Positions 4,267-62,862 are shown, numbered from the stretch's first letter. The stretch is 64,000 nucleotides of DNA from Minisyncoccia bacterium (GCA_050015375.1 JBEKBN010000005.1:1858-65857), one strand, 5' to 3'. Program-made: numbers and translations. Notes: generated by a model not told the origin, from the letters alone.

Positions 4267-4294
4267 TAATTCCGGAAAATCATATTCAATGAAT

Positions 4295-4943: not shown

Positions 4944-4944
4944 A

Positions 4945-11228: not shown

Positions 11229-11239
11229 AAACAATGAAT

Positions 11240-11845: not shown

Positions 11846-11860
11846 TAATTCGGGGCTTGC

Positions 11861-11938
11861 CCTGTTAGAGAGTGCAAAATTATTCGGGCGTTTTTTTTGT
11901 TCACAATTTTTCAATTATCAAAAGGACTCTCTAACAGG
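11861..11938. mobile_element. MITE-like element, GAGAG subfamily, 78 bp, TSD GCTTGC
   Basis: cctgttagagagtgc / ggactctctaacagg flanked by gcttgc on both sides. Confidence 0.7.
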
Positions 11939-11951
11939 GCTTGCCCCTCAC

Positions 11952-12563: not shown

Positions 12564-13165
12564 CCCAGATGGAAAGATCAAAAGAAAAGGGGTTCACCCC
12601 GTTAGAGAGTGCAAAATCATTAGGACAATATTTTAGCGTGCGGTTTCGCAATTTCAAAAAGGACTCTCTAACGGGGTTCACCATGGTTGAGATCATCGTC
12701 ACCATTTTTATTTTGGGTTTGGCCCTGGCCGCTATTTATGGAATTTTGTCCGTTGACATGGCCAGCGCCACCGCCTCAAAAAACAATTACACCGCCAGCA
12801 TGCTGGCTCAGGAAGGAGTGGAATTGGTGAGAAATTTCAGGGATAGCGATTGGCTTGCCGGACGGGAATTTGGTTCGCTGGGAGGTTTAGGCGGACCAGT
12901 AGGCGATGGTACCTTTGCCGTTGAGTGGGATGGAACCACGCTTTTGCCGGCGGAGTTTGCCGATGAATATCTGGAGAAAGATTCGAACGGCGTCTTCTCA
13001 TATGATGGTGGCGGTGACACTCTTTTCAAAAGGGCGATTACTATTGATGAAACCACAGATCCGGGAGTTGAGATTATTGTAAGAGTTGATGTCACCTGGA
13101 CCGAAAGGGGACTGGATAAAAAATTATCCGCCGAAGATCATTTATTCAACTGGTACCAAAAATGA
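12560..13165 (+). CDS. Minor pilin with a MITE-encoded 28-aa insertion in the leader peptide
   Basis: MTQMERSKEKGFT[PLESAKSLGQYFSVRFRNFKKDSLTGFT]MVEIIV. The GFT...E cleavage site is regenerated after the insert. Confidence 0.7.
   Translation: MTQMERSKEKGFTPLESAKSLGQYFSVRFRNFKKDSLTGFTMVEIIVTIFILGLALAAIYGILSVDMASATASKNNYTASMLAQEGVELVRNFRDSDWLAGREFGSLGGLGGPVGDGTFAVEWDGTTLLPAEFADEYLEKDSNGVFSYDGGGDTLFKRAITIDETTDPGVEIIVRVDVTWTERGLDKKLSAEDHLFNWYQK
12598..12675. mobile_element. MITE-like element, GAGAG subfamily, 78 bp, TSD GTTCAC, in-frame in CDS
   Basis: cccgttagagagtgc...cactctctaacggg with 6-bp TSD; insert plus TSD is 84 nt (28 codons). Confidence 0.8.
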
Positions 13166-29111: not shown

Positions 29112-30590
29112 ATGGATTTGAAAAATCTGACAATCAAATCATTGCGCGACGGCTACGCCAAAAAAGAATTCACACCCGAAGAGATCCAGAAGGAGTTTTT
29201 GAAATTGATAGAGAAAGAAAATCCGAAACTCAACGTTTTCTTGTCTGTTTCCGAGAATCTCACCCATGATTCAAAATTCATGATTCATGATTCAATTCTT
29301 ACCGGTGTTCCATGCGCGATCAAGGATAATATTATGACCAAGGATTCGATCACCACCGCCGGCTCAAAAATTCTGAAGCATTACAAAGCGCCATACGATG
29401 CTACGGTGATCAAACTTTTGAAAAAACACGGAGCGATTTTTTTGGGCAAAACAAATATGGACGAATTTGCCATGGGTTCGACCACCGAAAATTCCGCTTT
29501 CGGGCCGACGAGAAATCCTCATGACCATGATCGCGTTACCGGCGGTTCATCAGGCGGTTCGGCGGCGGCTGTGGCTTCGGGGATGGCCGTCTTTGCTCTT
29601 GGTTCGGATACCGGCGGTTCGATCCGGGCGCCGGCATCTTGGTGCGGAGTTGTGGGTTTGAAGCCGACTTACGGAAGAGTTTCGCGCTACGGTCTCATTG
29701 CTATGGCTTCCAGTTTGGACCAGATAGGACCCATTACCAAAAATGTAGAAGACGCGGCCATTGTCATGAACGCCATTGCCGGCCACGATTCGATGGATTC
29801 AACGAGTTCACCCCCACACTCAAAATTTGAGTGTGGGGGCGAGCCAAAAGACACCCCCGATTTCACGAAAAATCTTGGCAAATCCATCAAAGGATTAAAA
29901 ATCGCCATCGCCAAAGAATTTTTCGGTTCACCTCCACACTCAGCGACTGAGTGTGGGGGCAAGGGTTTGAATTCAGAAGTGGCCGATGCCATCGAGAAAG
30001 CGATTTCAAAACTCCAATCCCAGGGCGCTCATATTGACTATGCCAGTTTGCCGTTGACGGACTATTCCATTGCTGTCTATTATATAATCGTGCCGGCGGA
30101 AATTTCAGCGAACCTGGCAAGGTTCGATGGCATCCGTTACGGCCATTCGTCGGTGAAAGGTAAAAATCTGCTTGACACCTATCTTGATTCCCGCGAGGAA
30201 GGTTTTGGCGCCGAGGTCAAACGCCGGATAATGCTCGGCACTTATACTTTGTCAGCCGGTTATTATGATGCTTATTATTTGAAAGCCCAAAAAGTCCGGA
30301 CTCTTATCAGACAAAGTTTTGACAAAATTTTTGAACATTATGACGCCATTATCGGTCCGACCATGCCTACGATCGCGCCTAAGATCGGGGAATACAACGA
30401 CCCATTGACTTTTTACATGGCTGATATTTACACCTGCCAGGCGAATCTGGCCGGACTGCCGGCGATTTCCGTGCCTTGCGGGTTCATTGAAACCGGTGGC
30501 AAAAAACTTCCGGTCGGTTTGCAGATCATCGGCAAACATTTTGACGAAGAAACGATTTTACGAATAGCCAATGCTTACTCGAATTCATAA
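29112..30590 (+). CDS. gatA: Asp/Glu-tRNA amidotransferase subunit A (amidase signature)
   Basis: GGSSGGSAAAVA amidase signature. Start taken at MDLKNLTIK. Contains two in-frame palindrome inserts. Confidence 0.9.
   Translation: MDLKNLTIKSLRDGYAKKEFTPEEIQKEFLKLIEKENPKLNVFLSVSENLTHDSKFMIHDSILTGVPCAIKDNIMTKDSITTAGSKILKHYKAPYDATVIKLLKKHGAIFLGKTNMDEFAMGSTTENSAFGPTRNPHDHDRVTGGSSGGSAAAVASGMAVFALGSDTGGSIRAPASWCGVVGLKPTYGRVSRYGLIAMASSLDQIGPITKNVEDAAIVMNAIAGHDSMDSTSSPPHSKFECGGEPKDTPDFTKNLGKSIKGLKIAIAKEFFGSPPHSATECGGKGLNSEVADAIEKAISKLQSQGAHIDYASLPLTDYSIAVYYIIVPAEISANLARFDGIRYGHSSVKGKNLLDTYLDSREEGFGAEVKRRIMLGTYTLSAGYYDAYYLKAQKVRTLIRQSFDKIFEHYDAIIGPTMPTIAPKIGEYNDPLTFYMADIYTCQANLAGLPAISVPCGFIETGGKKLPVGLQIIGKHFDEETILRIANAYSNS
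29811..29839. repeat. 29-bp perfect palindrome cccccacactcaaaatttgagtgtggggg, in-frame in gatA
   Basis: Encodes SPPHSKFECGGEP. Confidence 0.85.
29931..29959. repeat. Palindrome cctccacactcagcgactgagtgtggggg (same family), in-frame in gatA
   Basis: Encodes SPPHSATECGGKG, 120 bp from the first copy. Confidence 0.8.
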
Positions 30591-37872: not shown

Positions 37873-38335
37873 GTTACTACGAAATTACGAATCTTTACGA
37901 ATATACGAATGGAATTGAAGAGAAAAGATCTTATACTTCCAGAACTAAGCTATAAAATTATAGGAGTATTGTTCGATGTTTTCAATTACTTAGGTTACGA
38001 ATATAGAGAAAAGTATTATCAAAGAGCGATTGCGAAAGCATTCAAAGAAATAAGAGTAAATTTTAAAGAGCAGGTATACTCGCCAATTGAATACAAAGGA
38101 GAAAATATTGGTGGTTATTTTTTCGACTTTTTAGTAGAAAACAAAATTATTCTTGAAATTAAAAGAGGAGACAATTTTTCTTCAAACGATATATCACAAA
38201 TTCTTTCTTACTTGAAAAAATCAAAATTACAGCTTGGTATCCTCGCACGTTTTTCAAGTAAAGGTTTGAAGTATAGGAGGATTGTTAATATAAATTGATT
38301 CGTATATTCGTAGCAATTCGTAATTTCGTAGTAAC
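37873..38335. mobile_element. 463-bp low-GC cassette with about 38-bp terminal inverted repeats carrying a GxxExxY gene, inserted between rpsG and fusA
   Basis: Left gttactacgaaattacgaatctttacgaatatacgaat; right attcgtatattcgtagcaattcgtaatttcgtagtaac, its reverse complement. Confidence 0.7.
37909..38298 (+). CDS. GxxExxY-family protein (PD-(D/E)XK-like)
   Basis: LGYEYREKYYQRAI motif, AT-rich. Confidence 0.7.
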   Translation: MELKRKDLILPELSYKIIGVLFDVFNYLGYEYREKYYQRAIAKAFKEIRVNFKEQVYSPIEYKGENIGGYFFDFLVENKIILEIKRGDNFSSNDISQILSYLKKSKLQLGILARFSSKGLKYRRIVNIN

Positions 38336-40444
38336 ATGTCAGATTACCCAATAGAAAAGATAAGAAATATAGGCATTGTCGCCCACATAGACGCCGGAAA
38401 AACCACAACAACCGAGCGGGTTTTGTTTTACACCGGTTTGACCCACAAGATTGGCGAGGTCCACGAAGGCGAAGCAGTCATGGATTGGATGGAACAGGAA
38501 CGCGAGCGGGGCATCACCATCACCGCCGCCGCCGTTACTTGTTATTGGTATCCGGTGGGCCTGCCCAGAGACAAAGAGAACGAGAGCCGTTTCAACATCA
38601 TTGACACCCCGGGGCATATTGATTTCACGGTTGAAGTCAAAAGATCACTCCGTGTTTTAGACGGCGCAGTCGTCGTTTTTGACGGCGTGGCCGGCGTTGA
38701 GCCTCAATCGGAAACCAACTGGCGCTACGCCGATGAATACAAAGTTCCCCGGATCTGTTTCATAAATAAGCTCGACCGACTGGGCGCGTCTTTTGAACGC
38801 TCCTACAAATCAATTTTGGAAAGATTAACGCCCAATGCCGTCCGGATGCAATTGCCCGACGGCGAGGAAGACAAATTCCACGGCGTTTTGGATTTGCTGG
38901 AAATGAAATATTATATTTTTGAAGGCGAGCATGGCGAGAAAGTCATCGAGAAACCGATCCCGTTCGAGGATCTGAGGGAACGAGCCGAAGCCGCCCGAGC
39001 AGAACTCGTCGAAAAAATTGTCGAGAACGATGATGTTGCCATGCAGAATTACCTGGAAGGAAAAGAAGTGCCCATTGCCGAACTTAAAAGGATCCTCCGC
39101 AAAGCGACCATCGAGAACAAATTAGTGCCGGTCTACGCTGGTTCGGCGTTGAAGAACAAGGGCGTCCAATTCATTTTGGACGGCGTGGTGGATTATTTGC
39201 CTTCGCCGATCGACCGGGCGGTAGTAAAGGGAATTGACCCAAAAACCGGCGGCGAGATATCCAGAAAATTAATTGATACCCAACCTTTCGCCAGTTTGGC
39301 ATTTAAAGTCGCCACCGATCCTTTTGTCGGCCAATTAACTTTCATCAGGGTTTATTCGGGCGTTCTCAATGCTGGTTCTTATACTTTGAACAGCACCAGC
39401 GGACAAACGGAACGTATCGGCCGGCTTTTACGAATGCGCGCCAATGACAGGGAAGAAATAAAAGAAATCTACGCCGGCGGAATTGCCGCCATTGTCGGCC
39501 TGAAGGGAACCAAAACCGGAGATACGCTTTGCGATCCGGAGGATCCGATCGTTCTTGAGAAAATTTCATTCCCCGAGCCGGTCATTCACATGCGAATTGA
39601 ACCCAAGACCAAGGCCGACCAGGAAAAAATGGGCTTGGCCTTGAAGAAACTTTCCGACGAGGACCCGACTTTCAAGATCAGGACCGACCAAGAAACCGGC
39701 GAAACCATCATCGGCGGGATGGGCGAGTTGCATTTGGATATCATCGTTGACCGGATGAAACGCGAGTTCAGCGTCGGCGCCAATGTCGGCCGGCCACAAG
39801 TCGCCTACAAAGAAACCATCCGCCAAAACGCTCAAGCCGAAGGCAAATATATCCGCCAATCCGGCGGCCGCGGCCAGTACGGACACGTTTGGTTGCGCAT
39901 CGAACCCCAGAAAAGGGGAGCGGGTTTTGAATTTCTTGATGAGATCAAATCCGGCGTCATTCCTAATGAATTTATTCCGGCTGTTGAAAAAGGCGTCCGC
40001 GAGGCGCTCGACAAAGGCATCGTTGCCGGTTTTCCGATTGTTGACCTGAAAGTCGCCCTTTATGATGGTTCGTATCATGAAGTTGACTCGTCGGAGATCG
40101 CCTTCAAGATAGCCGGCGCCATGGCCCTCCAGGAAGCCGCCAGACGCGCAAAACCGGTCCTGCTTGAGCCGATAATGAAGGTTGAGGTCATTGTGCCGGA
40201 GAAGTTTTTAGGCGAAGTCGTGGGTGATCTGAACTCACGGCGGGGAAAGATCGAACAGGTTTCGGATCGCTCGCCGTTGAATCTCAAAGTCATTGATTCC
40301 AAAATTCCGCTCTCGGAAATGTTCGGTTACGCGACCACGATCCGTTCGCTTTCCGAAGGCCGGGGAAATTATAATATGGAGTTCTCGAATTACGAGGAAG
40401 TACCGAACAACATCGCGGAACTGATCAAAGAAGGAAAAAAGTAA
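38336..40444 (+). CDS. fusA: Elongation factor G
   Basis: [20 protein letters not shown]. Confidence 0.95.
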
Positions 40445-40459
40445 CTCGCCTCCGTTTTG

Positions 40460-40650
40460 AAAATCCCGGACCAGGCTCACCGGATTGCTTTCCGGGGACT
40501 TAGGAAATCCCAGCGAGATTTCCGTCATCCGGTTGTCAGTTGCCGTCACTGATTGACGGCTTTTTGATTTCACAAAAAGCCGTCAATCAGACCCTGCCGA
40601 CGGCACCGACAACGGCCCCTGAAAGCAATCCGGTTCGCAGGGATTTTCAA
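40460..40650. repeat. 191-bp palindromic repeat element, copy 1 (about 98% identical to 53025..53215)
   Basis: Arms aaaatcccggaccaggctcaccggattgctttccgggga...cccctgaaagcaatccggttcgcagggatttt. Centre carries a bidirectional terminator-like hairpin gattgacggctttttgatttcacaaaaagccgtcaatc. Confidence 0.85.
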
Positions 40651-40744
40651 AACGGTAGCTCGCTGGGGGCTGTTGCATTATTTTCTGTTTTTTGGTATAA
40701 GTCAATTGCGATAATTGGGTCGTAATTATTAAGGAGATTGAATA

Positions 40745-43991: not shown

Positions 43992-44789
43992 ATGCCAGGC
44001 AAAGTGCTATTATGTGGAAATACATTTGATTTTTTGGCACCCGACATCACACTTTGTCTTCGTTTCGGCGAGGAACTTAGGCCTGAAATGATGCGCTGGG
44101 GCATGCCGGTAATATTGAGAAATGTCCTTTACGCCTTGTTATCTCTTGACGGTTTCGTTTCCGCCATATCGGCGAATGTCGGTATTAACTGGATTCATGA
44201 GACCAGACATCCTGATAGAATGTTTTGTCGGATTTTTCTCGGCGACATTTGCGTTGCTGGTTTTATTCATGTAGCAGGCAAGCCATATTCCGATAGCCAA
44301 TGCAGAGAAATCGCCGAGTGGCTTTGGCCGGAAACCGACAAAAAAACTACCGAGACCTGGACGGCGGACCAATGGCGGGAATTCTTCTTGGGACAAATTC
44401 AGGAAAATGCCGAGGCCACCCTAAAAAATGCCGAAGCTAAAATCGCCGAAGGTAATGTGGAAAAAATTGTTCCCGAATCCATCCTCCGCCACATCGGGAA
44501 ATTGCCGGCGAAAAAGAGGAAACCTCCCTATCTTTTTGCCGTTGAATGTATAGAGGCCGTCTACGGAACTTCGATGCGGGATATCACTTGGCCGCCGTTG
44601 AGAGAAATCGGCATGGCCGCCCTAGATATTCTCAAACAATCATTTGTTCAGGGTAAAATTCCAGAAGATGGATTGTCCGATGTGATTAAGCGTTTGGAAA
44701 AAATCCTTTACGATCCTGAAGCTTTCGACGCGTTGGGCCTTTTAATCAAAGACTTTATAAAGGTGATGAAACAACCCCCAAAAATCTAA
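43992..44789 (+). CDS. Hypothetical protein
   Basis: 265 aa; true start uncertain. Confidence 0.35.
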   Translation: MPGKVLLCGNTFDFLAPDITLCLRFGEELRPEMMRWGMPVILRNVLYALLSLDGFVSAISANVGINWIHETRHPDRMFCRIFLGDICVAGFIHVAGKPYSDSQCREIAEWLWPETDKKTTETWTADQWREFFLGQIQENAEATLKNAEAKIAEGNVEKIVPESILRHIGKLPAKKRKPPYLFAVECIEAVYGTSMRDITWPPLREIGMAALDILKQSFVQGKIPEDGLSDVIKRLEKILYDPEAFDALGLLIKDFIKVMKQPPKI

Positions 44790-45249
44790 CCGCTGAAATA
44801 CGCGGTTTTTATATTTTGTAATAATCCCAATGCCCGCCCTCGAAATCTTCCATAATTCCTCCCGAACAACAGCTCGCCAATATGGTTCTGGCGGCCGTTG
44901 TCGGTGCCGTTGGCACGGTTCGGTTTTTGTAATCAAAAAACGACAACGGCATCCGACAACCGGATGAGCAAATCGCTCGCTGGGCGATGCGAAGTCCGCA
45001 AGAGCCATATTGGCGAGCTATGGGAGAAATTGATAGAGAGATTTCGAGGCGAGCGTCATGTTGACAAACTAAAAATAAAGGAGTAAGCTGGTTCTATTGT
45101 AGGTTGTGTTCTAAGAGCCCTTGGTACTGTAGGTTTATCCTCAAAGGCCTAGGCGATTGGACAGGTCTTTCCTACAGGAAAAACGGGATATCTAGCGGTT
45201 GCGAGAATCTAGCTTCTAGATTCTAACTTCCGATGTTTATCCCCGAAAA

Positions 45250-45579
45250 ATGGGTAAAAAATTATATGTCGGCAGCTTGCCTTACAGCACGACCGATCAA
45301 CAGCTGAAAGAACACTTTTCCGCAGCTGGAACAGTGGAAACAGCGACGGTCATTTCCGACAAGTTCTCCGGCCGGTCCAAGGGCTTCGGTTTCGTCGAAA
45401 TGTCGACGGACGAGGAAGCTCAGAAAGCCATTGAGATGTTCAATGGAGCGGACATGGGCGGCAGGAACATTGTCGTGAACGAGGCGAGACCGTTGGAACC
45501 CCGCGCTCCTCGCGCCGGCGGTTTCAACAGAGGCGGCGGAAGCCGCGACCGCGGCTTTGGCGGCGGCAGGGACTACTAA
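45250..45579 (+). CDS. RRM-type RNA-binding protein with Gly/Arg-rich tail
   Basis: RNP-1 KGFGFVEM and RNP-2 LYVGSL. Confidence 0.85.
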   Translation: MGKKLYVGSLPYSTTDQQLKEHFSAAGTVETATVISDKFSGRSKGFGFVEMSTDEEAQKAIEMFNGADMGGRNIVVNEARPLEPRAPRAGGFNRGGGSRDRGFGGGRDY

Positions 45580-45587
45580 CCTTTCAT

Positions 45588-45613
45588 CCCCACGCTCACG
45601 CGTGAGTGTGGGG
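45588..45613. repeat. Palindrome ccccacgctcacgcgtgagtgtgggg (variant of the CCCCCACACTC family), intergenic
   Basis: One mismatch between arms. Confidence 0.6.
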
Positions 45614-45630
45614 ACAAGCCAAAACTCAAG

Positions 45631-45657
45631 AGGCGCTCGAAAGGGCGCCTTTTGGTT
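45631..45657 (+). terminator. Rho-independent terminator after the RRM gene
   Basis: aggcgc-tcgaaag-ggcgcct plus tttt. Confidence 0.65.
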
Positions 45658-45694
45658 TCTTGCTAATAATTTCATGTTCGAGGTATAATGTATG

Positions 45695-45783
45695 GCATGG
45701 GCCCAACTTGCGAGGGGTTCATTCTCATTTGGCAGTTAGGGAAGAGTCGGGAATGAAGTCGCGAGTTGGGCCCTCTTTTTTCC
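45695..45783 (+). ncRNA. Candidate small RNA or attenuator: promoter-proximal 75-nt hairpin ending in a T-run, upstream of the glutaredoxin gene
   Basis: tataat at 45684..45689; stem gggcccaacttgcgag / ctcgcgagttgggccc; then ctcttttttt. Confidence 0.35.
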
Positions 45784-45811
45784 TATAGATAATTTTGTTA
45801 TCATTAAATCC

Positions 45812-46054
45812 ATGACAAAAAACAAAAAAGTCGAGATCTATTCCACGCCATTTTGCGCTTATTGCAATTTGGCCAAAGAATATTTCAAGAAAAACAATAT
45901 CATCTATCACGAATACGATGTCGCCGCCGATATTAAAAAGCGGCAGGAGATGCTGGATAGAACCCGTCAGTTCGGCGTGCCGGTCATCGTCATTGATGGC
46001 CAGATAGTCATCGGCTTTGATAAGCCGAAGATAAACGAGCTGTTGGGGATTTAA
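45812..46054 (+). CDS. Glutaredoxin-like protein (NrdH/Grx family)
   Basis: CAYC redox motif in a thioredoxin-fold-sized 80-aa protein. Confidence 0.75.
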   Translation: MTKNKKVEIYSTPFCAYCNLAKEYFKKNNIIYHEYDVAADIKKRQEMLDRTRQFGVPVIVIDGQIVIGFDKPKINELLGI

Positions 46055-46057
46055 TTT

Positions 46058-46663
46058 ATGGAAATCAAACCATTGTCATTCACAAAAGATCTCGATGGAA
46101 TTTCAAAAAAAACCATTGAGATCCATCACGACAAACTTTACGCCGGCTATGTGAAAAAAGCCGGTGAGATTGCTGAGAAGTTGGTTGCTTTGCGGAAATC
46201 GGGAACGTTCGAAGGCAGTGCCACTTTCAGTGATTTGCGCGCGCTCAAAAGCGAAGAAACTTTTGCCGTCAACGGCGCCTATCTCCACGAATATTATTTC
46301 GACAACCTTGGCGGAGACGGCGACGCGAAATTAGCGCCGGAATTGTCGAAGGCATTTGTGGAAAAATGGGGGAGTGTGGAAAACGGGCTGAAATATTTTA
46401 GTGAGTGCGCTATGGCGGCACGCGGCTGGGCGGTGCTTGCGTGGGATATTAAGAAGCAGAAAATAATGCAATACAACGGTGATGCCCATAATCAGGGCGG
46501 GGTTTGGGGCTGTATTCCGATAATCGCACTGGATGTTTATGAGCACGCCTATTTTATTGACTTTGGTTCCGACCGCAAGGCCTACATCGAAGCGTTTTGG
46601 AAGAATTTTGATTGGCAAAAAGCCGAGGAATTATTCAAAAAAGTCAGAGAGATAAAAATTTAA
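46058..46663 (+). CDS. sodA: Fe/Mn superoxide dismutase
   Basis: IEIHHDKLYAGYV ... DVYEHAYFIDFGSDRKAYIEAFW. Confidence 0.85.
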   Translation: MEIKPLSFTKDLDGISKKTIEIHHDKLYAGYVKKAGEIAEKLVALRKSGTFEGSATFSDLRALKSEETFAVNGAYLHEYYFDNLGGDGDAKLAPELSKAFVEKWGSVENGLKYFSECAMAARGWAVLAWDIKKQKIMQYNGDAHNQGGVWGCIPIIALDVYEHAYFIDFGSDRKAYIEAFWKNFDWQKAEELFKKVREIKI

Positions 46664-46681
46664 CAGGCATATTAAAAGCAA

Positions 46682-46706
46682 AGGCCGCTCGAATGAGCGG
46701 CTTTGT
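46682..46706. terminator. Bidirectional terminator
   Basis: aaggccgctc-gaat-gagcggcttt. Confidence 0.65.
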
Positions 46707-46728
46707 CTACTGCGTTTACCACACAACT

Positions 46729-47004
46729 TCAGCTCAGCGGTTCGACAAGAACCTCATATGACCCGCACCTCAAACAATTCCTCGCGAAATTCTCCAGGGT
46801 CGGAGCACGAAGGGTAATGCTCTCGGGATCCCGGCCCTTAATCGGTTTGACGTGAATAAGCGCTTGACCCTGGACTGGAGTTTCAGCGTCTTTTGGAATT
46901 CTGGGGATAAGTTCTAGCCCGGCTTCCTGTACCATGTCTTCGATGTTTGCAAGGGCGTGATCAAGCGATCTATTCGCCGGACCAGTTATCAGCATATTGA
47001 ACAT
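46729..47004 (-). CDS. Hypothetical protein
   Basis: 91 aa. Confidence 0.3.
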   Translation of the reverse strand: MFNMLITGPANRSLDHALANIEDMVQEAGLELIPRIPKDAETPVQGQALIHVKPIKGRDPESITLRAPTLENFARNCLRCGSYEVLVEPLS

Positions 47005-52032: not shown

Positions 52033-53018
52033 TCATGCCCCATAAATTTGATGTCATCTCCCTCGGTTCCTCGACTCGCGATGTCCTCTTGAAAAGCGGT
52101 TACTTTGAGACGCGCAAACATGGCGATTCACCGACGGGAGTGGAGCAGTGTTTTCCTTTGGGTACGAAACTGGAGATCAAAGAGATATATTTTACCACTG
52201 GCGGCGGCGGACACAACGCGGCGGTGACATTTGCCCGGCAAGGTTTCAAAACGGCTTGCGTTGGCGTCATCGGCGACGATATCACCGGTCAGGAAATAAT
52301 CTGGGAATTGAAAAAAGAAGGCGTCAACGCCGACATGTTCCAGAAACATGCCGAAGGCCATTCGGCCTACTCGATAATCATGGTTCATCCGAACGGCGAG
52401 CGGACAATTTTGAGTTACAAAGGCGAGGGCCAGCATTTCGATGTCAAAAAAATTCCTTTGGAAAAAATGGATTCGGAATGGCTGTATCTGGATTCAATGG
52501 GCGGCCATTACGACTTGATGTGGTCGGTGGTCAATCACGCCGTCAAGAACGGGATCAAGATCGCTTTCAATCCCGGCGGCAAAGAACTCGAGCACGGACT
52601 GGAAAGATTGAAACCAATTTTGCGCCACATTGATGTTTATCTCACAAACAAAGAAGAAGGCGCTGAGTTACTGAAAGTCAAATCCCAGAATTGGGGGATC
52701 GTTTTGGAAAAATTGTCGAAACTCGTGAAAGGCGTAGCCATCGTTTCGGACGGCCACAACGGAGTTCGGGTATCGGACAAAAGAAATATTTACAGCGCCG
52801 GCGTGCCCGATTCGCCGGTCATTGAGAGAACCGGCGCCGGAGATGCGTTCGGTTCGGGATTCGTCAGTGAGTTCATGCGGGTGGGAAATATTACCAAGGC
52901 CATTCAATTCGCGACGGCCAACGCTTCATCGGTAGTGACGAAATTCGGGGCCAAGGCGGGGATTCTCAAAAAAGGGGATTGGGGACCGTGGAAGCTGGTT
53001 GAGGTCAGCAAAAAGTAG
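52029..53018 (+). CDS. PfkB-family carbohydrate kinase (ribokinase-like)
   Basis: GGGGHNAAV ... TGAGDAFGSGFV. Confidence 0.8.
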   Translation: MIMPHKFDVISLGSSTRDVLLKSGYFETRKHGDSPTGVEQCFPLGTKLEIKEIYFTTGGGGHNAAVTFARQGFKTACVGVIGDDITGQEIIWELKKEGVNADMFQKHAEGHSAYSIIMVHPNGERTILSYKGEGQHFDVKKIPLEKMDSEWLYLDSMGGHYDLMWSVVNHAVKNGIKIAFNPGGKELEHGLERLKPILRHIDVYLTNKEEGAELLKVKSQNWGIVLEKLSKLVKGVAIVSDGHNGVRVSDKRNIYSAGVPDSPVIERTGAGDAFGSGFVSEFMRVGNITKAIQFATANASSVVTKFGAKAGILKKGDWGPWKLVEVSKK

Positions 53019-53024
53019 TTAATT

Positions 53025-53215
53025 AAAATCCCGGACCAGGCTCACCGGATTGCTTTCCGGGGACTTAGGAAATCCCAGCGAGATTTCCGTCATCCGGTTG
53101 TCGGTTGCCGTCGCTGATTGACGGCTTTTTGATTTCACAAAAAGCCGTCAATCAGACCCTGCCGACGGCACCGACAACGACCCCTGAAAGCAATCCGGTT
53201 CGCAGGGATTTTCAA
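53025..53215. repeat. 191-bp palindromic repeat element, copy 2
   Basis: Inserted at the centre of a pre-existing palindrome gcaaaaagtagttaatt | aattaactactttttgc that includes the kinase stop codon. Confidence 0.85.
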
Positions 53216-53229
53216 TTAACTACTTTTTG

Positions 53230-54100
53230 CTGTTGTATTCGGTTGGTTAAAACAAAAGACCCCTGTCCAAATGGATCAGAGGCCGGAACCCTACAGAAGC
53301 CGTTCGGTTATTTCAGCTTCTTTGCCTTTTGTTTGTCGGCAGGTTCGGATTATGTATGATGTGAGTCCCATTTTACTCCACGGGTTTCTCACGATGTCTG
53401 CCAACCGAAAGGTCAGGCACCTGAAGGATTTTCACCTTCTAAAGATCTATGATTGCGGGCCCGCCTGCCGCAGATCGGGAAACCCGACAAAAACTGCGGC
53501 AGGACAGGTAAATGGGAACATTTGTTCGCATTGGGAGGCGAACCTTCCGGAGTTCCCGACCCGGAAATGACACGAACAATGATGAACCAGTGGGCGACCG
53601 CTCCAAAAAATGGGTGGCCCGTCATCATCTGATGTTCGTGCCGGTGGTGCGAGTTACACCAGATTGTGGGTGACCCGATTGAACGGGAACCCTATGTCCA
53701 AGCGTAACTCGCGCCGGTGTACGGGAGCTACCGATACATTGAGTGGCTACTTCGTGCCTTTTTTTACGAAGTGCCTGCACTGATAACTCTCGCACAAGTC
53801 GGTCTTGCCGTGGAGAAGGCCAGGGCGCCGGTCGTCAGGAACTCTTCATTTTCAAAGAAATGGAAAGGGTCAAAACCTTCATAGGCGTATTCCTCGCTAT
53901 GCTAGCGGAAAAAGGGGTGGGCACGGCTGTGCGCCACCACGGTTTCAGAGAAAAACACTGATGTGATAAGTTGGGTCTGGCATTTATGCGGGTGGGAAGC
54001 GCGCCAGACCCTATTTGCGGGGTAGTCCCGGCCCACCACATCTCCCAAAACATATTTAATTGTTAATGTATCCAGTATAGCACAACCATATATCCTGTCA
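53230..54100. other. ORF-free GC-rich structured region of about 870 bp; candidate large ncRNA(s)
   Basis: No ORF over about 75 aa on either strand. Segment 53780..54045 resembles the RNase P RNA P4-P5 region (aaguc...ggccagggcgcc) but lacks full consensus. Confidence 0.25.
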
Positions 54101-55499: not shown

Positions 55500-56356
55500 A
55501 AAAATTAAACGAATATTTTCAAAAGGCAAAGGCGGAAAAGTGGGCAATCGGTCATTTTAATTTTTCGACCGAGGACCAATTGAAAGCATTCGTCGAGGCG
55601 GCGGCGGAATTAAAATCTCCAATCATGGTGGCGGTTTCGGAAGGCGAGGCCAAGTATTTCGGACGGCCGCAAGCGGCGGCGCTGGTGAAATCATTTCAGG
55701 AAACCGGCAATCCCGTCTATCTCAACGCCGATCATCACAAGTCATGGGAGACGATCAAAGATGCCATTGATGCCGGGTTTGACACGGTTTTGTTCGACGG
55801 GTCAAAATTGCCATATGAAGAAAATATCGCTTTGACCAAAAAGGTCGTCACCTACGCCAAGAAAAAAGATTCGGACATGATGGTGGAAGGGGAGCTGGGT
55901 TATCTTCGGGGCGATTCTCAAATTCAGGAAAATGTCGAGATAAGCCCGGCGGATTACACTCAACCGGAACAAGCTACGGACTTCGTTAAAAAAACCGGCG
56001 TTGACCGGCTGGCGATTGTTTTTGGCAACATCCATGGCATTGTTACCAAACAAGAAGAACATCTCGATATCGGTTTATTAAAAAAAATCGTGACAGCGGT
56101 ACCGGATGTCTATCTGGTTTTGCATGGCGCGTCAGGTTTGCCGCCGGTGGAAATCAAAGAAGCCATCGCCAACGGCATTACCAATGTCCACATCAATACC
56201 GAACTTCGGGTGGCATATATTGACGCGTTGAAAGAAGCCATTCAAAAAGATCCGAAACAAACCACGCCCTACAAAGTTTTCGGCGATTCTTACGAAGCCA
56301 CAAAAAAAGCCATCAGAGAAAAACTGGAACTCTTCGGGTCAGTCGCAGGGATCTGA
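55496..56356 (+). CDS. fba: Class II fructose-bisphosphate aldolase
   Basis: AIGHFNFST...LNADHHKS...LVLHGASGL. Confidence 0.9.
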   Translation: MKKLNEYFQKAKAEKWAIGHFNFSTEDQLKAFVEAAAELKSPIMVAVSEGEAKYFGRPQAAALVKSFQETGNPVYLNADHHKSWETIKDAIDAGFDTVLFDGSKLPYEENIALTKKVVTYAKKKDSDMMVEGELGYLRGDSQIQENVEISPADYTQPEQATDFVKKTGVDRLAIVFGNIHGIVTKQEEHLDIGLLKKIVTAVPDVYLVLHGASGLPPVEIKEAIANGITNVHINTELRVAYIDALKEAIQKDPKQTTPYKVFGDSYEATKKAIREKLELFGSVAGI

Positions 56357-56563
56357 CGCGAACCCCTTTTGATATTTCCGAACCTCCATCTCTATTTTCC
56401 GGCTAGCTTCGGCGATTGCCTCTCTGATCACCACTCCATTTCCCAGCGAGAAATGTCGTTCGCTCAAAAGCGTGGATTTTGCTCGCAGTGGCTCACGCCG
56501 ATATTATACTGCTCGCAAACCGTGCAATCCACCCTTTTGAGCGTGCTCCGAGAGGCAATCACC
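56354..56563 (+). ncRNA. Structured repeat element copy A, beginning at the fba stop codon
   Basis: Outer stem gattgcctctctga / tcagagaggcaatc enclosing a conserved core. About 90% identical (reverse-complemented) to 62682..62828, with compensatory outer-stem changes. Confidence 0.4.
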
Positions 56564-56690
56564 TCGCCTGATCGCTGGAATATTATTGAAGTCCGGAAAT
56601 GATGCGGGCCTGCCTAAATCTTCTCAACTGACACCGCCGAGTTTGCAGGTGAGCGGCTTAGACACAAAAAAGCCACCCATTCGGATGGCG

Positions 56691-56969
56691 TTACGACCGG
56701 GATTCAAGATCGCCCAATAATCTAGAAATCTCATCGTCTAATCCAAAGCCTATGTAAGGTTCTTTGACCCTTATTTTAGCTAGCCGAATAATTACCCCCT
56801 GTAAATCATTTTCGGGTATTGTCATTTCTCGCATCACATGAATGAGGGTTCGGGTCGTATGCTGAATAGTGATGTGATTGATACGATTACTGGTTAGGGA
56901 CAGGTTATGCATTATTCTTGAAACAATAACCTCGTGAGGCGATTTTTTCTCATATATTATATTCGGCAT
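56691..56969 (-). CDS. Hypothetical protein
   Basis: 92 aa, low GC. Confidence 0.3.
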   Translation of the reverse strand: MPNIIYEKKSPHEVIVSRIMHNLSLTSNRINHITIQHTTRTLIHVMREMTIPENDLQGVIIRLAKIRVKEPYIGFGLDDEISRLLGDLESRS

Positions 56970-57299
56970 GATTTCCTCATTTAGATTAAAGAACTGGCGA
57001 CATCATCGTCGCAAATACTTTATATGCCAAACCCGAAAAAAATACAAGAAGGCGATACGGATGTTTAGGAATGCGGATGAACGAAGCCGATTAATCCCTG
57101 CGAACCCTGGTTCCTTTGGAGGGCACTGCCAGTCCCGTCGAGCAAGGTTTTTCTTGAGCTGTAATCAGCAAAAGAAAATCGACGGGATCTGGCAATGAGC
57201 GGAGATTTCGAAAGACAAAGACCTCGCAGGGGTCATAGAGTCGAAGCGTCCCGACAAAGGGACTAGGGTGAGCCCAGGTCGGGGATTGATCGGCTCGCG

Positions 57300-58265
57300 C
57301 TAGATCTTGATTTCCACCACATCCCCGTCCTGGATGAGATAATCCTTGCCGACGGTGTGGATTTTGCCGTGGGTTTTGGCGGCAGACCAGGAGCTGGCGG
57401 CCAGAAGTTCGCGCCAATTGATTACATCGGCGCGGATGAATTTTTGCTCAAAATCAGTGTGAATGGCCCGGGCGGCACGGGGGATGAAGTCGCCGCGCTT
57501 CGCCGTCCAGGCTCGGGTCTCGTCTTCGCCGGTGGTCAGGAAAGTAACGAGATCCAATGTCTCATAGGATTTTTTTATCAACGAGTCAAGTCCGCTTTGA
57601 CTAATTTCCAATTCCTCCATGAATAACGCTTGCTCATCGGGCGCGGATTCCGAAAGCGTCAGTTCGAATGTTCCGCACAGAATGACGAACTCGTCTTTTC
57701 CAACCGCTCCCAATATTTTTTCATCCGGCCGCCACTTATTTTTTATCTGTTCTTCGGAAGCGTTGAAAACATAAATGATCTTTTTATCGGTCAAAAGGTC
57801 AAGTTTCGGCAGTTCCTCTTTGCCTTTCTTTTTCGCGTCTCGTTTTTCTTTTGTCTCCAGATCGGCGAGCGCCAACTCGGTATTGATAACTCCGATATCA
57901 TTGGCTGGATCTATTTTCTTATGAACATGGAGTATTTTTTCATTTTCAAAAACTCGGACGACTTCGGCAATGGCATCCACTTCGCGGATGTTGGCCAGAA
58001 ATTTATTACCTAGACCTTCGCCTTGAGCCGCGCCTTTGACCAGGCCGGCAATGTCAATGAATTCTATCGCCGTCGGAATTATCTTCGCCGAATGAGACAT
58101 CTTGGCCAATAAATCCAACCGTTCGTCTGGGACGGCAACAACGCCCACATTCGGATCAATGGTTGTGAAAGGATAGTTCTGGATATCAACTTGTTTTTTC
58201 GTCAGGGCCTTGAAAAGCGTTGACTTTCCCACATTTGGTAGGCCCACGATGCCGATAGAGAGCAT
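57300..58265 (-). CDS. ychF: Ribosome-binding ATPase YchF (Obg family)
   Basis: [19 protein letters not shown] plus C-terminal TGS domain. Confidence 0.9.
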
Positions 58266-58317
58266 GTTTATAAGTGGTTATTGATTATGTTTTCAATGGA
58301 TGATATCATGAAAATAT

Positions 58318-58645
58318 GAGTGGCGTGGGTGTTAACCTGTGCCATTCCGGAGTAGGTAGTACCTTTTCTTGAGTGGACAGTTCTGACGGCGAAAGGTAGG
58401 GTAGCTTATGAATGTACGCACTTTGCTAAACACTCTATTTCACAGTGGTTTAGCTTCGAATACGGTGGAGACGATCGCCTAAGCATATAACGAGCGGCCT
58501 CGAGCCCTTTAGGTGATTTGCTCTCATTGTCCGCACGCCGGCCCTTCAATATTCGGTGTGCGGCCCGCTATCATTTGTTCTTTTTTACAAGTTTTTCACG
58601 GTTCGATCCCGTAGCCCGGCATACCATAGCCGGGCTTCCTTTTTA
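58318..58645 (+). ncRNA. Tandem structured element 1 (about 330 nt) with its own terminator and a 24-codon mini-ORF (58408..58482)
   Basis: Conserved boxes agtggcgt, ccggagtagg, hairpin tccgcacgccggcc..caatattcggtgtgcggcccgc, terminator gcccggc-ataccatag-ccgggc plus T5. Confidence 0.35.
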
Positions 58646-58723
58646 ATCATATCTTCTTTTGCCGGAGAGCATATTTATAACTGGTTATTGCTCTGATTCA
58701 TATAGTTTGATATTATTGAAATG

Positions 58724-58987
58724 CAGTGGCGTTAGTGTTAGATTGACGCCGTTGCGGAGTAGGCGTTACCCGCGAGAACTGGGAGAAAAAAGGGAGAATT
58801 GCCTATGAATGCGTTTAACAGCTTTACGGTGGAGTTCATCGCCTAGGATCGCTATCCAGTAAGGATGATGAAATTTCCAAGTCCGCACGCCGGCCTACAA
58901 TATTCGGTGTGCGGCCCGCCATCATCGCTCTTTCATATATTTTCTTTCTTATTAAGGCCGAGACCAGTTCTCGGCTTTGCCTTTTTT
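58724..58987 (+). ncRNA. Tandem structured element 2, paralog of 58318..58645, with a 13-codon mini-ORF (58805..58846) and terminator
   Basis: Same conserved boxes; terminator gccgaga-ccagt-tctcggc plus T6. Confidence 0.35.
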
Positions 58988-59016
58988 ATAATCTCATATT
59001 CTGATAAAATATCAAT

Positions 59017-60405
59017 ATGATATACAACTCGGAAATTTTCAGGGCATACGATATCAGGGGAATTTATGACAGGGATTTTGATGATGAATTCGCGGTCGCA
59101 TTGGGCAAGGCGGCGGTAGAATATTTCAAAGCCGGGAAAATTCTGGTTGGCCATGATAGCCGGGCATCATCGCTGGCTTTGGCCGGAAAATTATCCGAAA
59201 GTTTAACCGGTTTTGGCTGTGATGTGGCGAGTATCGGTCTGGTCACCACGCCGTTTTTCAATTTTGTCCTTTCCAGCATTAAGCCCGACGCCGGCATCAT
59301 GGTTACCGCTTCGCACAACCCGACCGAATACGGCGGTTTCAAGATCTACGACGGTTCGGGAACAATAATTGGCCTGACAGCGGGGCTTGGCGAGATAAAA
59401 AAGATAATTGATCCCGTTAGAGACCTCGCCCGCGCTGGCGCGCCCGGAGGGCCTATGGGGCGGGCTGTCTCTAACGGGGTTGATTCCGGAAATTTTAAAA
59501 CCGCCGACAAAAAGGGCGAATATTTAAAAGTTCCCGTGGCAGAACTCCTGCAAAAATACACAAACCGTATCGTTACCGGTTCAAAGTTGAGGAAAGGTGA
59601 GCTCAGCAATCTCAAATTTAATATCACCGGCCGGAAAAGTGTTATGGCCGAAGTCGAGTTGATACTGAAGAAATTGGATTTGCGATTGACACCCAACGGC
59701 TTTGACATCGCTTTTTCTTTTGACGAGGATTCGGACCGTTTGATAGTCATGGATTCCGCCGGCAACAAGATAGGCACCGATTTCGTCGTCGGTTTGTTGG
59801 CGAAAAATTCGGTCAGGTTCTTGTCAAAACCGAAAGTCGTCTACGATGTCCATTTTTCCAAAGGCGTCATCGGCAAATTCAAAGAGTGGGGGATAAAGTC
59901 ATACAGATCAAAAGTCGGCCGGTTCTATCTTCGCGATGCCATGGTAAAACACCGCGCCGATATCGGCGGCGAGATCTCCGGCCATATCTATTTCAAAGAA
60001 AATAACCGCAATGAATTGCCGCTTCTGGCTTTGTTGCGGCTTTTGAGAATTTTAGCCGCCAGTAAAATGAGCATCAACGAAATGATTAAGCCATTCCAGA
60101 CATGGTTCAGTTCCGGCCGGCTGGATTTCAGGGTCAACAATCTGCAGACCGCCAGAGAATTAATAAAAAAAATCGCGGGCAAATATCCCGACGGCCAAAA
60201 GGACGAATTAGACGGCATTACCATCGAATACACCGACCCGGAAAAAATAGACAACCTGACGCCGGACAAATTTTGGTGGTTCAATCTCCGTGCTTCCAAC
60301 ACCGAACCGGTTCTCCGTCTCATCGTTGAGGCGAAAAACGCCGACTTATTGAAAGAAAAGGTCGGCGAGATCTCGCAAATTATTGAAGAAAAAAATGCCG
60401 CGTAG
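59017..60405 (+). CDS. Phosphomannomutase/phosphoglucomutase (alpha-D-phosphohexomutase)
   Basis: Active-site TASHNPTEYGGFK. Confidence 0.85.
   Translation: MIYNSEIFRAYDIRGIYDRDFDDEFAVALGKAAVEYFKAGKILVGHDSRASSLALAGKLSESLTGFGCDVASIGLVTTPFFNFVLSSIKPDAGIMVTASHNPTEYGGFKIYDGSGTIIGLTAGLGEIKKIIDPVRDLARAGAPGGPMGRAVSNGVDSGNFKTADKKGEYLKVPVAELLQKYTNRIVTGSKLRKGELSNLKFNITGRKSVMAEVELILKKLDLRLTPNGFDIAFSFDEDSDRLIVMDSAGNKIGTDFVVGLLAKNSVRFLSKPKVVYDVHFSKGVIGKFKEWGIKSYRSKVGRFYLRDAMVKHRADIGGEISGHIYFKENNRNELPLLALLRLLRILAASKMSINEMIKPFQTWFSSGRLDFRVNNLQTARELIKKIAGKYPDGQKDELDGITIEYTDPEKIDNLTPDKFWWFNLRASNTEPVLRLIVEAKNADLLKEKVGEISQIIEEKNAA
59413..59479. mobile_element. MITE-like element (CCCGTTAGAGAC termini), in-frame in the phosphohexomutase gene, TSD TTGAT
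   Basis: cccgttagagacc...gtctctaacgggg flanked by ttgat on both sides. Confidence 0.7.
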
Positions 60406-60618
60406 ATCACACGGCACGAGGGAGTTCAATTCCCCAATCATGAGCTATTTTATCTAATATGATTCTATCGTCAGGATCGGGATGTTCAAAATGTTTGAGA
60501 ATTGATTCCTCATCGTCAACTTCATCGAACAGAAAGCAAGATTCGTCGAAAATGAACGAAAAGAGAAACGCAATAACTCCACCACCCAAAAAAATTTTAA
60601 GAAAGAGCATAGTCCCTC

Positions 60619-61596
60619 CTACAGCCCCATTTTGGCCTTAATTTCAGCCATATTTGAAGTAGCTATTTCCTTGGCCTTATTTTCACTCTTGGTGAGGATT
60701 TTGTCAACTTCAGGCAAGTCATCTTCAAATTTTTTCCGTCTTTTCTGAAACGGTGTCAAAAAATCGACTACCATTTCCGCCAGGTCATTTTTGAAATCAA
60801 CATATGTTTTTCCGGCGAACTCATCCTCAAGTTTTTTCACGGGCTTTCCAGCAAGAAGGGAATAGATGGTTAATAAATTTGAAATCGCCGGTTTTTTCTC
60901 TTCATCGAAAATTATTTCTTTCCCCGAATCAGTTACGGCTTTTTTTATTTTGGCGCGGATGACATCGGGCTCATCGGTCAGAGCAATGCCTTCATCATTG
61001 GTTTTTGACATTTTCTTTGTCGGTTCCTGAAGCGACATGATCCTGGCGCCGGTATTGACATGGGCTTTCACATTCGGAAATACATCGCCGAACATTGAGT
61101 TGAATTTATGGCCAATTTCGTTTGTTAGATCAATGTGAGGCAGTTGGTCTTCACCAACCGGTACCATATTCGATTTATAGATTAAAATATCTGCCGCCAT
61201 CAAAACCGGATAATCAAGCAAACCCATGTGATTATATTTTCCCGCTTGCTCAAGTTTTTCCCGATAAGTTGGCAATCTGTCCAGCCAGCTGACTGGTGTG
61301 ATTGTATTGAAAAGCCAAGCAAGCTCGGTGTGCTCGGGGATTTTTGACTGGCGGATGAGAAGCGATTTCTCCGGATTGATTCCGGCGGCTAGATAATCTA
61401 AAACCACATCCATGACTTGCTGATGGTATGTTTTTGGGTCGTAAGGCGTGGTAATGCCATGCAAATCAACCACGCCATAAATCGCCCGTTCGGTCTCTGG
61501 GTCGTCCTGCAATGCTATCCAGTTCTTTATCGCCCCCAAATAATTGCCCAGATGCAATTTCCCCGACGGCCGGATGCCACTGAATATGCGGTTCAT
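60619..61596 (-). CDS. trpS: Tryptophan--tRNA ligase
   Basis: SGIRPSGKLHLGNYLG (HIGH-type) and KMSKT. Confidence 0.9.
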   Translation of the reverse strand: MNRIFSGIRPSGKLHLGNYLGAIKNWIALQDDPETERAIYGVVDLHGITTPYDPKTYHQQVMDVVLDYLAAGINPEKSLLIRQSKIPEHTELAWLFNTITPVSWLDRLPTYREKLEQAGKYNHMGLLDYPVLMAADILIYKSNMVPVGEDQLPHIDLTNEIGHKFNSMFGDVFPNVKAHVNTGARIMSLQEPTKKMSKTNDEGIALTDEPDVIRAKIKKAVTDSGKEIIFDEEKKPAISNLLTIYSLLAGKPVKKLEDEFAGKTYVDFKNDLAEMVVDFLTPFQKRRKKFEDDLPEVDKILTKSENKAKEIATSNMAEIKAKMGL

Positions 61597-61685
61597 ATAT
61601 CAAGAATACAATAATTTGTTCAAAATATAAACTATTGACAAGTAATTGCTAATGATATACTATTCTCTGAAAGGAGAGATAACCC

Positions 61686-62102
61686 ATGAGAACCTTAAAA
61701 ACAGTCGTGTTTTTAGTGGTTTTGCTTTTAACTTTTTCGGCGTGTTCCGGGTCGGTCAGTGTTTCAAGCGTTCCATCTGACAAAGACCAGGAAGTCGAAA
61801 AAACGGTAGGGGAATTTGTCGCATACGGCTATGTCCGGTCGGTTTGGACGCTGGACCACAAGATAGGTAGTATCACGAATTATCGGCACATGGTTGTTGC
61901 ATTCGAAGGCGACGACCACCGATTATTTCAAATTACATTTTTTTCACTGGAGCCAGTTCTTTGGCAAGGTTTGCATGCCAAAATCAGATACAAATTATCC
62001 GGAAAAAACGAGCCGAACGCTTATGTTTCTAATAAAGTGGGATATTGCGTATCCTATGGAACCGATCTTTATGACTTGATTTCAGTAGAGCGAATCCGTT
62101 AA
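61686..62102 (+). CDS. Putative lipoprotein
   Basis: Signal peptide with lipobox LTFSAC. Confidence 0.45.
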   Translation: MRTLKTVVFLVVLLLTFSACSGSVSVSSVPSDKDQEVEKTVGEFVAYGYVRSVWTLDHKIGSITNYRHMVVAFEGDDHRLFQITFFSLEPVLWQGLHAKIRYKLSGKNEPNAYVSNKVGYCVSYGTDLYDLISVERIR

Positions 62103-62207
62103 TATCTCATCCATTTTTCACCGAGTTTGCACCGAGGCGCCCCCCGCGCCTCTTTTTTTTGCAAATATTTTGCGGTCGTGATATCCTTTTGATGACAAAA
62201 TTGTTCT

Positions 62208-62567
62208 TTGGAGGTGAATATGGCAGGGGAGAGGTATTGCACGTATGACGGCGGAGAGCTTCTATTTCGCCAATTTCTCGGTAGTATTCGCGTATTTATT
62301 TGCAGAAAATGTAGGCAGGTTTTTTTTGCGGAAACAGCAGAACATAGAGCAAAAATGGGCGTGGCCGATTCGAGCGAATGCGAGAAAGCCAAACGGGAAA
62401 AGCTGGAAAAAGATTTGGAGCAATCAATCGGAAAAACCCAGACCATGGCTCGGGAACACGAACTTTTAAAAAAACGGGTTAACGAATTGGAAGAAAAGTT
62501 GGGCGACGAAGATTTCAGAAGAATGGGTGGAGTGTCTTTTCCTCCCCCTGAAAATCAAGGTACCTAA
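62208..62567 (+). CDS. Hypothetical zinc-ribbon / coiled-coil protein
   Basis: CTYDGG...CRKCRQ; likely start MAGERY at 62220. Confidence 0.4.
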   Translation: MEVNMAGERYCTYDGGELLFRQFLGSIRVFICRKCRQVFFAETAEHRAKMGVADSSECEKAKREKLEKDLEQSIGKTQTMAREHELLKKRVNELEEKLGDEDFRRMGGVSFPPPENQGT

Positions 62568-62591
62568 CAAGACAATTATCGCAAACATCAC

Positions 62592-62614
62592 GAGGCGGAA
62601 ACGCCTCTTTTTTA
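62592..62614 (+). terminator. Rho-independent terminator
   Basis: gaggcg-gaaa-cgcctc plus tttttt. Confidence 0.7.
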
Positions 62615-62650
62615 ATACTACGAAATTACGAATTAGTACGAATATACGAA
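62614..62650. repeat. Solo copy of the GxxExxY-cassette terminal repeat
   Basis: aatactacgaaattacgaattagtacgaatatacgaatcc, compared with 37873..37910. Confidence 0.75.
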
Positions 62651-62681
62651 TCCCTGAGCGAGCCCCTCAATCCATGCGAGT

Positions 62682-62862
62682 CCCGGTCTCTCTGGGCACG
62701 CTCAAAAGAGTGGATTGCACGGTTTGCGAGCAGTATAATGTCGGCGTGAGCCACTGCGAGCAAAATCCACGCTTTTAAGTGAACGGTAAAACTCGCTGGG
62801 TTTTGGAGTGGTGACCAGAGAGACCGGGACGAGCCCAGGTTGAGGATTAAGGGCTCGCGCTA
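62682..62862 (-). ncRNA. Structured repeat element copy B, beginning at the RNase J stop codon
   Basis: Outer stem cccggtctctctgg / ccagagagaccggg. Core is the reverse complement of copy A (56414..56563). Shares the stop-adjacent motif cgcgagcc..acctgggctc with the ychF 3' end. Confidence 0.4.

Follow-up and report, generated by a model that had tools for sequence, protein, structure and literature searches.

We describe here an apparently undescribed family of non-coding elements of Parcubacteria (Patescibacteria), six members of which lie in a 64,000-nt stretch of a Minisyncoccia (Patescibacteria) genome assembled from metagenome (this whole stretch is hereafter called the window). The members share a Y-shaped fold of the single strand that is solidly conserved across the family, and those that follow a gene lie on its sense strand, in several cases beginning at its stop codon. 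Near-identical copies at unrelated loci, empty sites in close relatives and near-pure Watson-Crick stems argue for dispersal by copying. Our preferred but tentative reading, to which we give a probability of roughly 45%, is that these are non-autonomous mobile elements akin to REPINs or to miniature inverted-repeat transposable elements (MITEs), co-transcribed as a hairpin in the 3' untranslated region (3'-UTR) of the upstream gene. The family makes up about 2% of the window, in a group with very small, streamlined genomes for which hardly any non-coding RNA or repeat biology has been described; neither the literature on Patescibacteria nor Rfam yielded a description of such elements.

Every member contains an asymmetric three-way junction. 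The core measures about 130–230 nt, and elements with the outer modules about 190–260 nt. A long basal helix (P0-P2) leads into a junction that mostly carries ACUY; a short side hairpin (P3) bears the loop CCCAGCGAG (CCCWGCGAG), and a long arm (P4-P5), variable at its tip, opens with GCUCAU and has the bulge AACCNUGC on its 3' side. Most copies add an outer module, AATCCnnnACCWGG(G)CTC ... YTCGCAKGGATT, plus a 3' tail GGCTCGCT(T)GGG. This tail, CUCGCUUGGG or CUCGCU(U)GGG in many copies, has two complementary partners, the P3 loop and the 5' end GCGAGCC. As read, the element ends are (stop)CGCGAGCC or CGCTCGCC at the 5' side and GGCTCGCT(T)GGG at the 3' side. About 35 unpaired nucleotides in loops and junctions are conserved, and all stems covary. 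Folding z-scores are −4.5, −6.9 and −5.7 for the long hairpins A, B and C, and range from −4.5 to −14.9 among all six window elements. Rfam 15 at gathering thresholds found four tRNAs in the window and nothing on the elements, and at E ≤10 over A, B and C gave only weak chance matches of 19 bits or less. The six window members are listed here; D1, D2 and E were found by an inverted-repeat scan and motif searches.

56354..56615, plus strand: A, from the TGA stop of fba; A/B-type core, covariance-model core 56413-56561; P3 loop CCCAGCGAG at 56442-56450, bulge AACCGTGC at 56518-56525
62645..62862, minus strand: B, from the TAG stop of the RNase J gene; covariance-model core 62681-62829; AATCC..ACCTGG at 62848, P3 loop 62800-62792, bulge end 62717, CTCGCATGGATT at 62680-62669, tail GGCTCGCTCAGGG at 62664-62652
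57072..57302, minus strand: C, from the TAG stop of ychF; outer module that of B, core different (C-type), covariance-model core 57105-57268; P3 loop CCCTGCGAG at 57231-57223
40442..40668, plus strand: D1, from the TAA stop of fusA (EF-G); covariance-model core 40479-40633; P3 loop 40509-40517, tail CTCGCTGGG at 40659-40667
53004..53234, plus strand: D2, after pfkB; covariance-model core 53044-53198
44832..45058, minus strand: E; D/E-type core, covariance-model core 44877-45013

Copies A and B belong to a single subfamily of this larger family. The repeat finder matched 56420-56554 (+) with 62688-62822 (−) over 135 nt at 89% (blastn E 2e-39), and placed inverted repeats around A (56411-56431/56543-56563) and around B (62665-62699/62811-62845); counted from the stop codon onward, the two hairpins are 218-262 nt long. 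The original prediction had started from these two copies, reporting them on the sense strand of the upstream gene with their start at its stop codon, and the open reading frame (ORF) calls bear this out, with the TGA of fba at 56354-56356 and the TAG of rnj (RNase J) at 62862-62860 on the minus strand. The core reported as common to both copies is indeed there, at 135 nt rather than 150, and of the outer arms quoted around it those of B are exact, while the 3' arm of A reads tccgagaggcaatc, one mismatch away from the quoted tcagagaggcaatc. The copy after ychF had been taken to share only the first 34 nt; it is in fact a full third member, C (57302-57072, minus strand), which also has in common with B the 5' end, the 3' end (TTCGCAGGGATT...GGCTTCG), the motifs and the whole architecture, so that the core sequence alone differs. 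That earlier survey thus covered A, B and C, and missed the members at 40442-40668, 53004-53234 and 45058-44832.

The window has three occurrences of the motif TRRCGCGARCC and no more, one at each of the stops of fba, ychF and rnj; shuffled sequences lead one to expect 0.26, and 1 of 100 shuffles reaches three. Stop codons as such need not be the target: in other genera the fold begins 10-23 nt past the stop, and four members follow no gene. Nor is the stop codon supplied by the element: this idea was rejected because the C-termini of YchF (GDVVEIKI) and Fba are native despite the insertion. D2 departs from the simple arrangement, as its outer helix takes in the final 10 coding bases of pfkB and the TAG stop (53016-53018), and E has no gene upstream on its own strand, its 5' end facing the start (45250) of a divergent gene for an RRM protein.

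The fold was examined by three routes. For P3 and P2, alignments were made with the register set by the flanking conserved motifs and not by each sequence's own fold. In P3 both sides change in all five pairs, with 93% of the cells paired, a result reached by 0/500 shuffles; in P2 both sides change in 12 of 15 pairs. From 12 cores aligned by MAFFT without supervision, RNAalifold recovered P2, P3 and P4, with changes on both sides in 17/20 pairs. A covariance model built from that 12-core alignment gave an alignment in which 18/20 pairs change on both sides and 89% of the cells are paired, against 34-58% for slid partners (0/500 shuffles). The compensatory changes first noticed between A and B are therefore real and hold family-wide. 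The step from there to a functional RNA does not follow, since mobile DNA hairpins give the same signal, compensatory changes between the arms being common in REPINs (PMC3116915); strong covariation by itself cannot tell a functional RNA from a replicating hairpin element.

Relatives were sought through one metagenome pattern scan and in loci around ychF homologues. Together these yielded about 11 further loci in at least five other Parcubacteria genome lineages, along with several more metagenome contigs of unknown relatedness, and bring the family to more than 15 members beyond the A/B pair, across several genomes. The pattern scan hit four contigs from another sample, which with motif searches carry at least seven members. 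Upstream genes outside the window are gyrA, ftsK, rpmA, rpsF, rpoC and pfkB: members lie after gyrA (L007b), ftsK (L008a), rpmA (L009), pfkB (L016), rpsF (L017 and L018) and rpoC (L023). Another lies after recA (L008c, with a divergent interior), one lies before fba in a Yanofskybacteria genome (L022), others adjoin the start of a divergent gene (L006/L007a and L008b), and one is cut by a contig end (L005). No element is present in L015 and L021, loci of 20 kb each, or in L019, of 4.8 kb. The covariance model retrieves all members, plus ones on which it was not trained: L007b (35.8 bits), L023 (56 bits), L022 (27 bits) and L005. The motifs are kept across genera at a G+C content of 39-57%. A 21-mer core query of a genome collection returned one chance match, in a high-G+C genome; two pattern scans of a viral collection and a BLAST search against plasmids and phages returned no match.

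Several observations point to dispersal by copying. D1 and D2 are 98% identical over 191 nt at the unrelated loci of fusA and pfkB. Like cores are combined with unlike outer stems, the A/B-type core occurring in A, B and L009 with three different P2 helices. Relatives that share the gene order (L005, L015, L016) are free of elements at the ychF, fba and rnj sites: the ychF-fba gap is 0-37 nt in L015 and L016, the rnj-trpS gap is about 50-110 nt in L016 and L015, and in L005 a terminator alone follows ychF. The pfkB site is empty in L015, and is occupied by very different members in the window and in L016. Stems are almost wholly Watson-Crick (in D2, 88 pairs with zero G:U), and one-sided, wobble intermediates fill 0 cells of P3 and 2 of P2 in the motif-anchored alignments. 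What had been named as possible refutations of the original prediction, a lack of further copies or a duplication that includes coding sequence, was not what we found: more copies exist, and the repeat contains no coding sequence.

A second strain has B and C with few changes, which in B include an 8-nt duplication and in-stem mismatches and in C the compensated replacement of a G-C by an A-T pair in the apical stem. The divergence of B and C between the strains is below the synonymous divergence (dS) of the adjacent genes (0.25, 0.38), but the flanking non-coding DNA is equally conserved and the genomes are recombination mosaics. E is unchanged between strains, yet lies inside a 2,836-nt tract of such a mosaic that is identical between them. 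More generally, the strain pair is 100% identical over kilobase tracts within regions of 4-8% divergence (44120-46956 against L020; 57730-62200 against L011), which indicates that the two co-occurring strains have recombined recently.

In all co-directional contexts that could be scored, about nine in number (C, D1, D2, L009, L016, L017, L022, L023 and probably L008a), the element lies on the sense strand, with a chance probability of about 0.002, and the elements are therefore tied to transcription. L007b also lies sense after its gene, its downstream gene being uncertain. Within 17 kb the orientation changes along with that of the local gene, D2 and A being on the plus and C and B on the minus strand, so replication direction cannot explain it. 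The four members without a gene (E, L008b, L006/L007a and L005) all have the 5' end facing the start of a divergent gene, and therefore a promoter region upstream in every case. No intrinsic terminator is predicted on the elements' own strand at the 3' ends of A, B and C, where nearby sites belong to convergent genes.

Whether the selected form is RNA or DNA is a matter on which the signals diverge. Sense-strand mismatches in or beside helices are more often A:C than G:U (14 vs 7, and 42 vs 15 in the helix-adjacent count), and the antisense strand has the more stable fold in 12/13 members. The near-pure Watson-Crick stems and the outer helix of D2, which repeats the last bases of pfkB in inverted form, likewise speak for an entity at the DNA level. 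These strand tests conflict: minimum-energy folds and mismatches favour the antisense strand or DNA, and the alignment fitted to the model points to the sense strand, towards which it is biased. The conserved features, for their part, are asymmetric and single-stranded, which points to a link with RNA or transcription.

According to the mobile-element reading, the replicating unit would be the folded single strand, whose unpaired motifs may be recognised by an enzyme acting in trans. If only copies that keep the fold propagate, stems would covary family-wide while single copies drift. Insertions would survive at gene 3' ends in the sense orientation, and the surviving copies would be transcribed as 3'-UTR or intercistronic spacer into a very stable RNA hairpin, which probably impedes 3' exonucleases or provides a processing site. 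Among the three options of the original prediction, a 3'-UTR RNA element, a small RNA or a stop-codon-targeting insertion sequence, the best fit is thus a mixture of the first and the last. If mobile, the elements would be unusual in their asymmetric three-way junction and its conserved loops, in being oriented along the direction of transcription and in their place at stop codons, and they would imply a mobilising activity new for these genomes.

The family would work most like REPINs and transcribed MITEs, with which IS200/IS605 ends may be named as the same kind of thing, yet it lacks the defining features of both that we tested, save the near-identical copies. Like our elements, REPINs are non-coding, multi-copy and extragenic, measure about 100-200 nt, form a long hairpin in single-stranded DNA or mRNA and persist vertically in lineages. 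REPINs are, however, symmetric, with two conserved terminal REP (repetitive extragenic palindromic) units around a variable spacer, are scattered without regard to gene orientation, and are mobilised by RAYT/TnpA-REP tyrosine (HUH) transposases, whereas in our elements the internal motifs are conserved, the stems and ends vary, and the whole is oriented with the upstream gene and abuts its stop. Two inverted REP units with conserved ends are not seen; what is conserved is the P3 loop, the bulge, GCUCAU and the junction. On reading the sequences we saw no GTAG or CGTC tag of REP ends (PMC3733652) at the element ends. Transcribed MITEs (ERIC/IRU, Correia/NEMIS, RUP, BOX, RU-1/2/3; PMC2229807, PMC2759123) resemble our elements as small non-autonomous repeats that form long RNA hairpins when co-transcribed, and they can change mRNA stability or processing and sometimes overlap ORF ends (PMC2229807, PMC2759123). 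Near-identical copies at unrelated loci (D1/D2 98%, A/B 89%) are a MITE feature. In classical MITEs the terminal inverted repeats are defined, the target duplication is fixed and often TA, and the copies are highly identical, while our elements diverge strongly in sequence around the conserved loops and are strictly sense.

A number of findings weigh against mobility. No transposase (a RAYT, or Y1 HUH transposase, gene included), reverse transcriptase, recombinase or integrase was found among the 50 window proteins scanned. Flanks show no consistent target-site duplication, of fixed length or otherwise, and no pair of filled and empty sites close enough to fix the element ends was found. The DNA examined also contains no parent insertion sequence with matching ends. 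The conserved parts (unpaired motifs and side hairpin) are internal and not terminal, which is unlike REPINs and MITEs and typical of functional RNA; their persistence across genera of differing G+C, at low copy number and in streamlined genomes, fits a host function; and strict sense orientation is uncommon for cut-and-paste DNA elements. At the flanks, CTCGC forms direct repeats in D1, L007a, L008a and L022 and inverted ones in B, C and L008c. A TA target duplication was considered and rejected, as it fits L008c only.

The window also contains a second, classical MITE-like hairpin family (11852-11947, 12591-12682, 11238-11436, 4296-4364 and 59413-59478), with terminal repeats CNGTTAGAGAGTGCAAAA.../...ACTCTCTAACNG and 8-10-bp direct repeats as flanks (GGCTTGCC, GGGGTTCACC). 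Since these true MITE-like hairpins have duplications of 8-10 bp (11852-11947, 12591-12682), the contrast with the Y elements is clear. One MITE-like copy lies in frame in a prepilin-like ORF, where it duplicates a KGFT motif, and another lies in the PGM/PMM ORF, which has 462 aa here against 426-437 aa in relatives.

The main rival, which we regard as possible though less probable than mobility, is a structured RNA that serves the host, in cis within a 3'-UTR or intergenic spacer, or, where a copy has no gene before it, as a small RNA, its copies having arisen by duplication or recombination without a dedicated transposase. It might signal processing or stability, bring about factor-dependent termination, bind a protein or cleave itself as a ribozyme. 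It might also be a translation-sensing switch, in which a ribosome stopping at the stop codon would open the basal helix and so release the 3' tail for pairing with the P3 loop. Such a host role would suit the conservation of about 35 unpaired nucleotides while every stem covaries, the uniform sense orientation, the promoter region upstream of all four gene-less members, and the occurrence in several genera with adaptation to host G+C. The upstream genes are highly expressed housekeeping genes, and the complementarity of tail and P3 loop shows two possible compensating changes (L006, L008a). The C/A/U-rich juxtapositions at helix ends of the sense strand could moreover be a design against unwanted pairing. 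Against this, no gene has the element consistently, and close relatives lack it behind the same genes; the near-identical copies at unrelated loci suggest recent copying; sense-strand G:U pairs are scarce and the antisense strand nearly always folds better; and the copies of the second strain contain the 8-nt duplication and mismatching changes within stems. The lack of any Rfam match even at E ≤10 counts against known RNA classes only. The mobile-element and host-RNA readings are not mutually exclusive. There is a minor but real chance that the family is a new Patescibacteria-specific class of structured RNA, be it a self-cleaving ribozyme, a processing module that marks transcript boundaries after housekeeping genes, or a switch with a CUCGCUUGGG-CCCAGCGAG pseudoknot. 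If they are functional RNAs, a major uncultured lineage would have in them a new 3'-UTR module or ribozyme of wide occurrence.

A further reading, which we consider improbable, makes the elements DNA palindromes kept complementary by mutation (template switching or gene conversion within the hairpin), or else single-strand recombination sites similar to integron attC; paired changes would then be uninformative on RNA. The near-pure Watson-Crick stems, whose pairs change on both sides and almost never on one alone, agree with this, as do the outer helix of D2, in which the final 13 nt of pfkB, stop codon included, recur in inverted form, and the pair L006 and L007a, which occupy the same site and differ in both outer-helix arms together. 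The asymmetries, however (the side hairpin belongs to one arm only and the bulge to the opposite one, and internal loops are asymmetric), are conserved across genera and would be erased by a perfecting process, so that purely mutational upkeep is unlikely, and the orientation bias relative to genes is left unexplained. Integron attC sites are like our elements in conserving structure but not sequence, in having near-perfect stems with unpaired bases that mark the strand, and in lying directly 3' of ORFs in fixed orientation and with variable length; our elements differ in having housekeeping genes upstream, on both strands and with no cassette array, in their three-way junction and in being longer. 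Neither attC core sites (RYYYAAC/GTTRRRY, R''/R') in the element sequences nor an integrase among the scanned window proteins was found.

Chance similarity, or a recent segmental duplication including coding sequence, would account for the initial observation of two copies and nothing more, and is refuted by the blastn E-value of the A/B pair, by the start of the repeat after the stops of unrelated genes, and by the more than 15 further members in several genomes.

We also compared the elements with retron non-coding RNA (msr-msd), which they resemble in the paired 5' and 3' ends, a short hairpin with a conserved loop and one long hairpin, and from which they differ in having no adjacent reverse transcriptase and many copies per genome. 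The window holds no reverse transcriptase; that of L006 is convergent and of the diversity-generating retroelement type. A link to diversity-generating retroelements was also considered, as the L006 member adjoins this reverse transcriptase, and was rejected: L007 has the element at the same site without the enzyme, and the repeats lie outside ORFs, so that the proximity is treated as coincidence. The L006 retroelement is complete and spans 2535-5198, with the reverse transcriptase, bAvd and a template/variable repeat (TR/VR) pair at 3395-3434 and 3830-3860; a second diversity-generating reverse transcriptase with bAvd adjoins ychF in L022 (11695-13054).

Other repeats and features were seen nearby. 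(i) Arrays of the motif TACGAAT/ATTCGTA with a period of about 10 nt occur in the window (37876-37910, 38298-38335 and 62617-62650) and in L017 (about 6650-6720); two of them, inverted, flank a 129-aa ORF immediately upstream of fusA, and a third adjoins the 3' end of B. (ii) Two perfect small hairpins, CCCCCACACTCA..TGAGTGTGGGGG, lie in a GatA-like amidase ORF (29811-29838 and 29931-29959). The same small hairpin follows gyrA in L006 (1640-1700), beside a duplicate of about 30 nt of the gyrA 3' end, and there looks like an insertion that may have rebuilt the gene end. (iii) In the relative L005, the 5' end of ychF has an insertion that overlaps the gene's start and contains a large serine recombinase and a small terminase subunit (2108-3763), probably what is left of a prophage. 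(iv) Between ychF and the PGM gene of the window lie two tandem, related non-coding units on the plus strand (58281-58640 and 58716-58990), which we regard as candidate small RNA genes; neither has an Rfam match, and both come with their own intrinsic terminator and their own sigma-70-like promoter, extended by TG.

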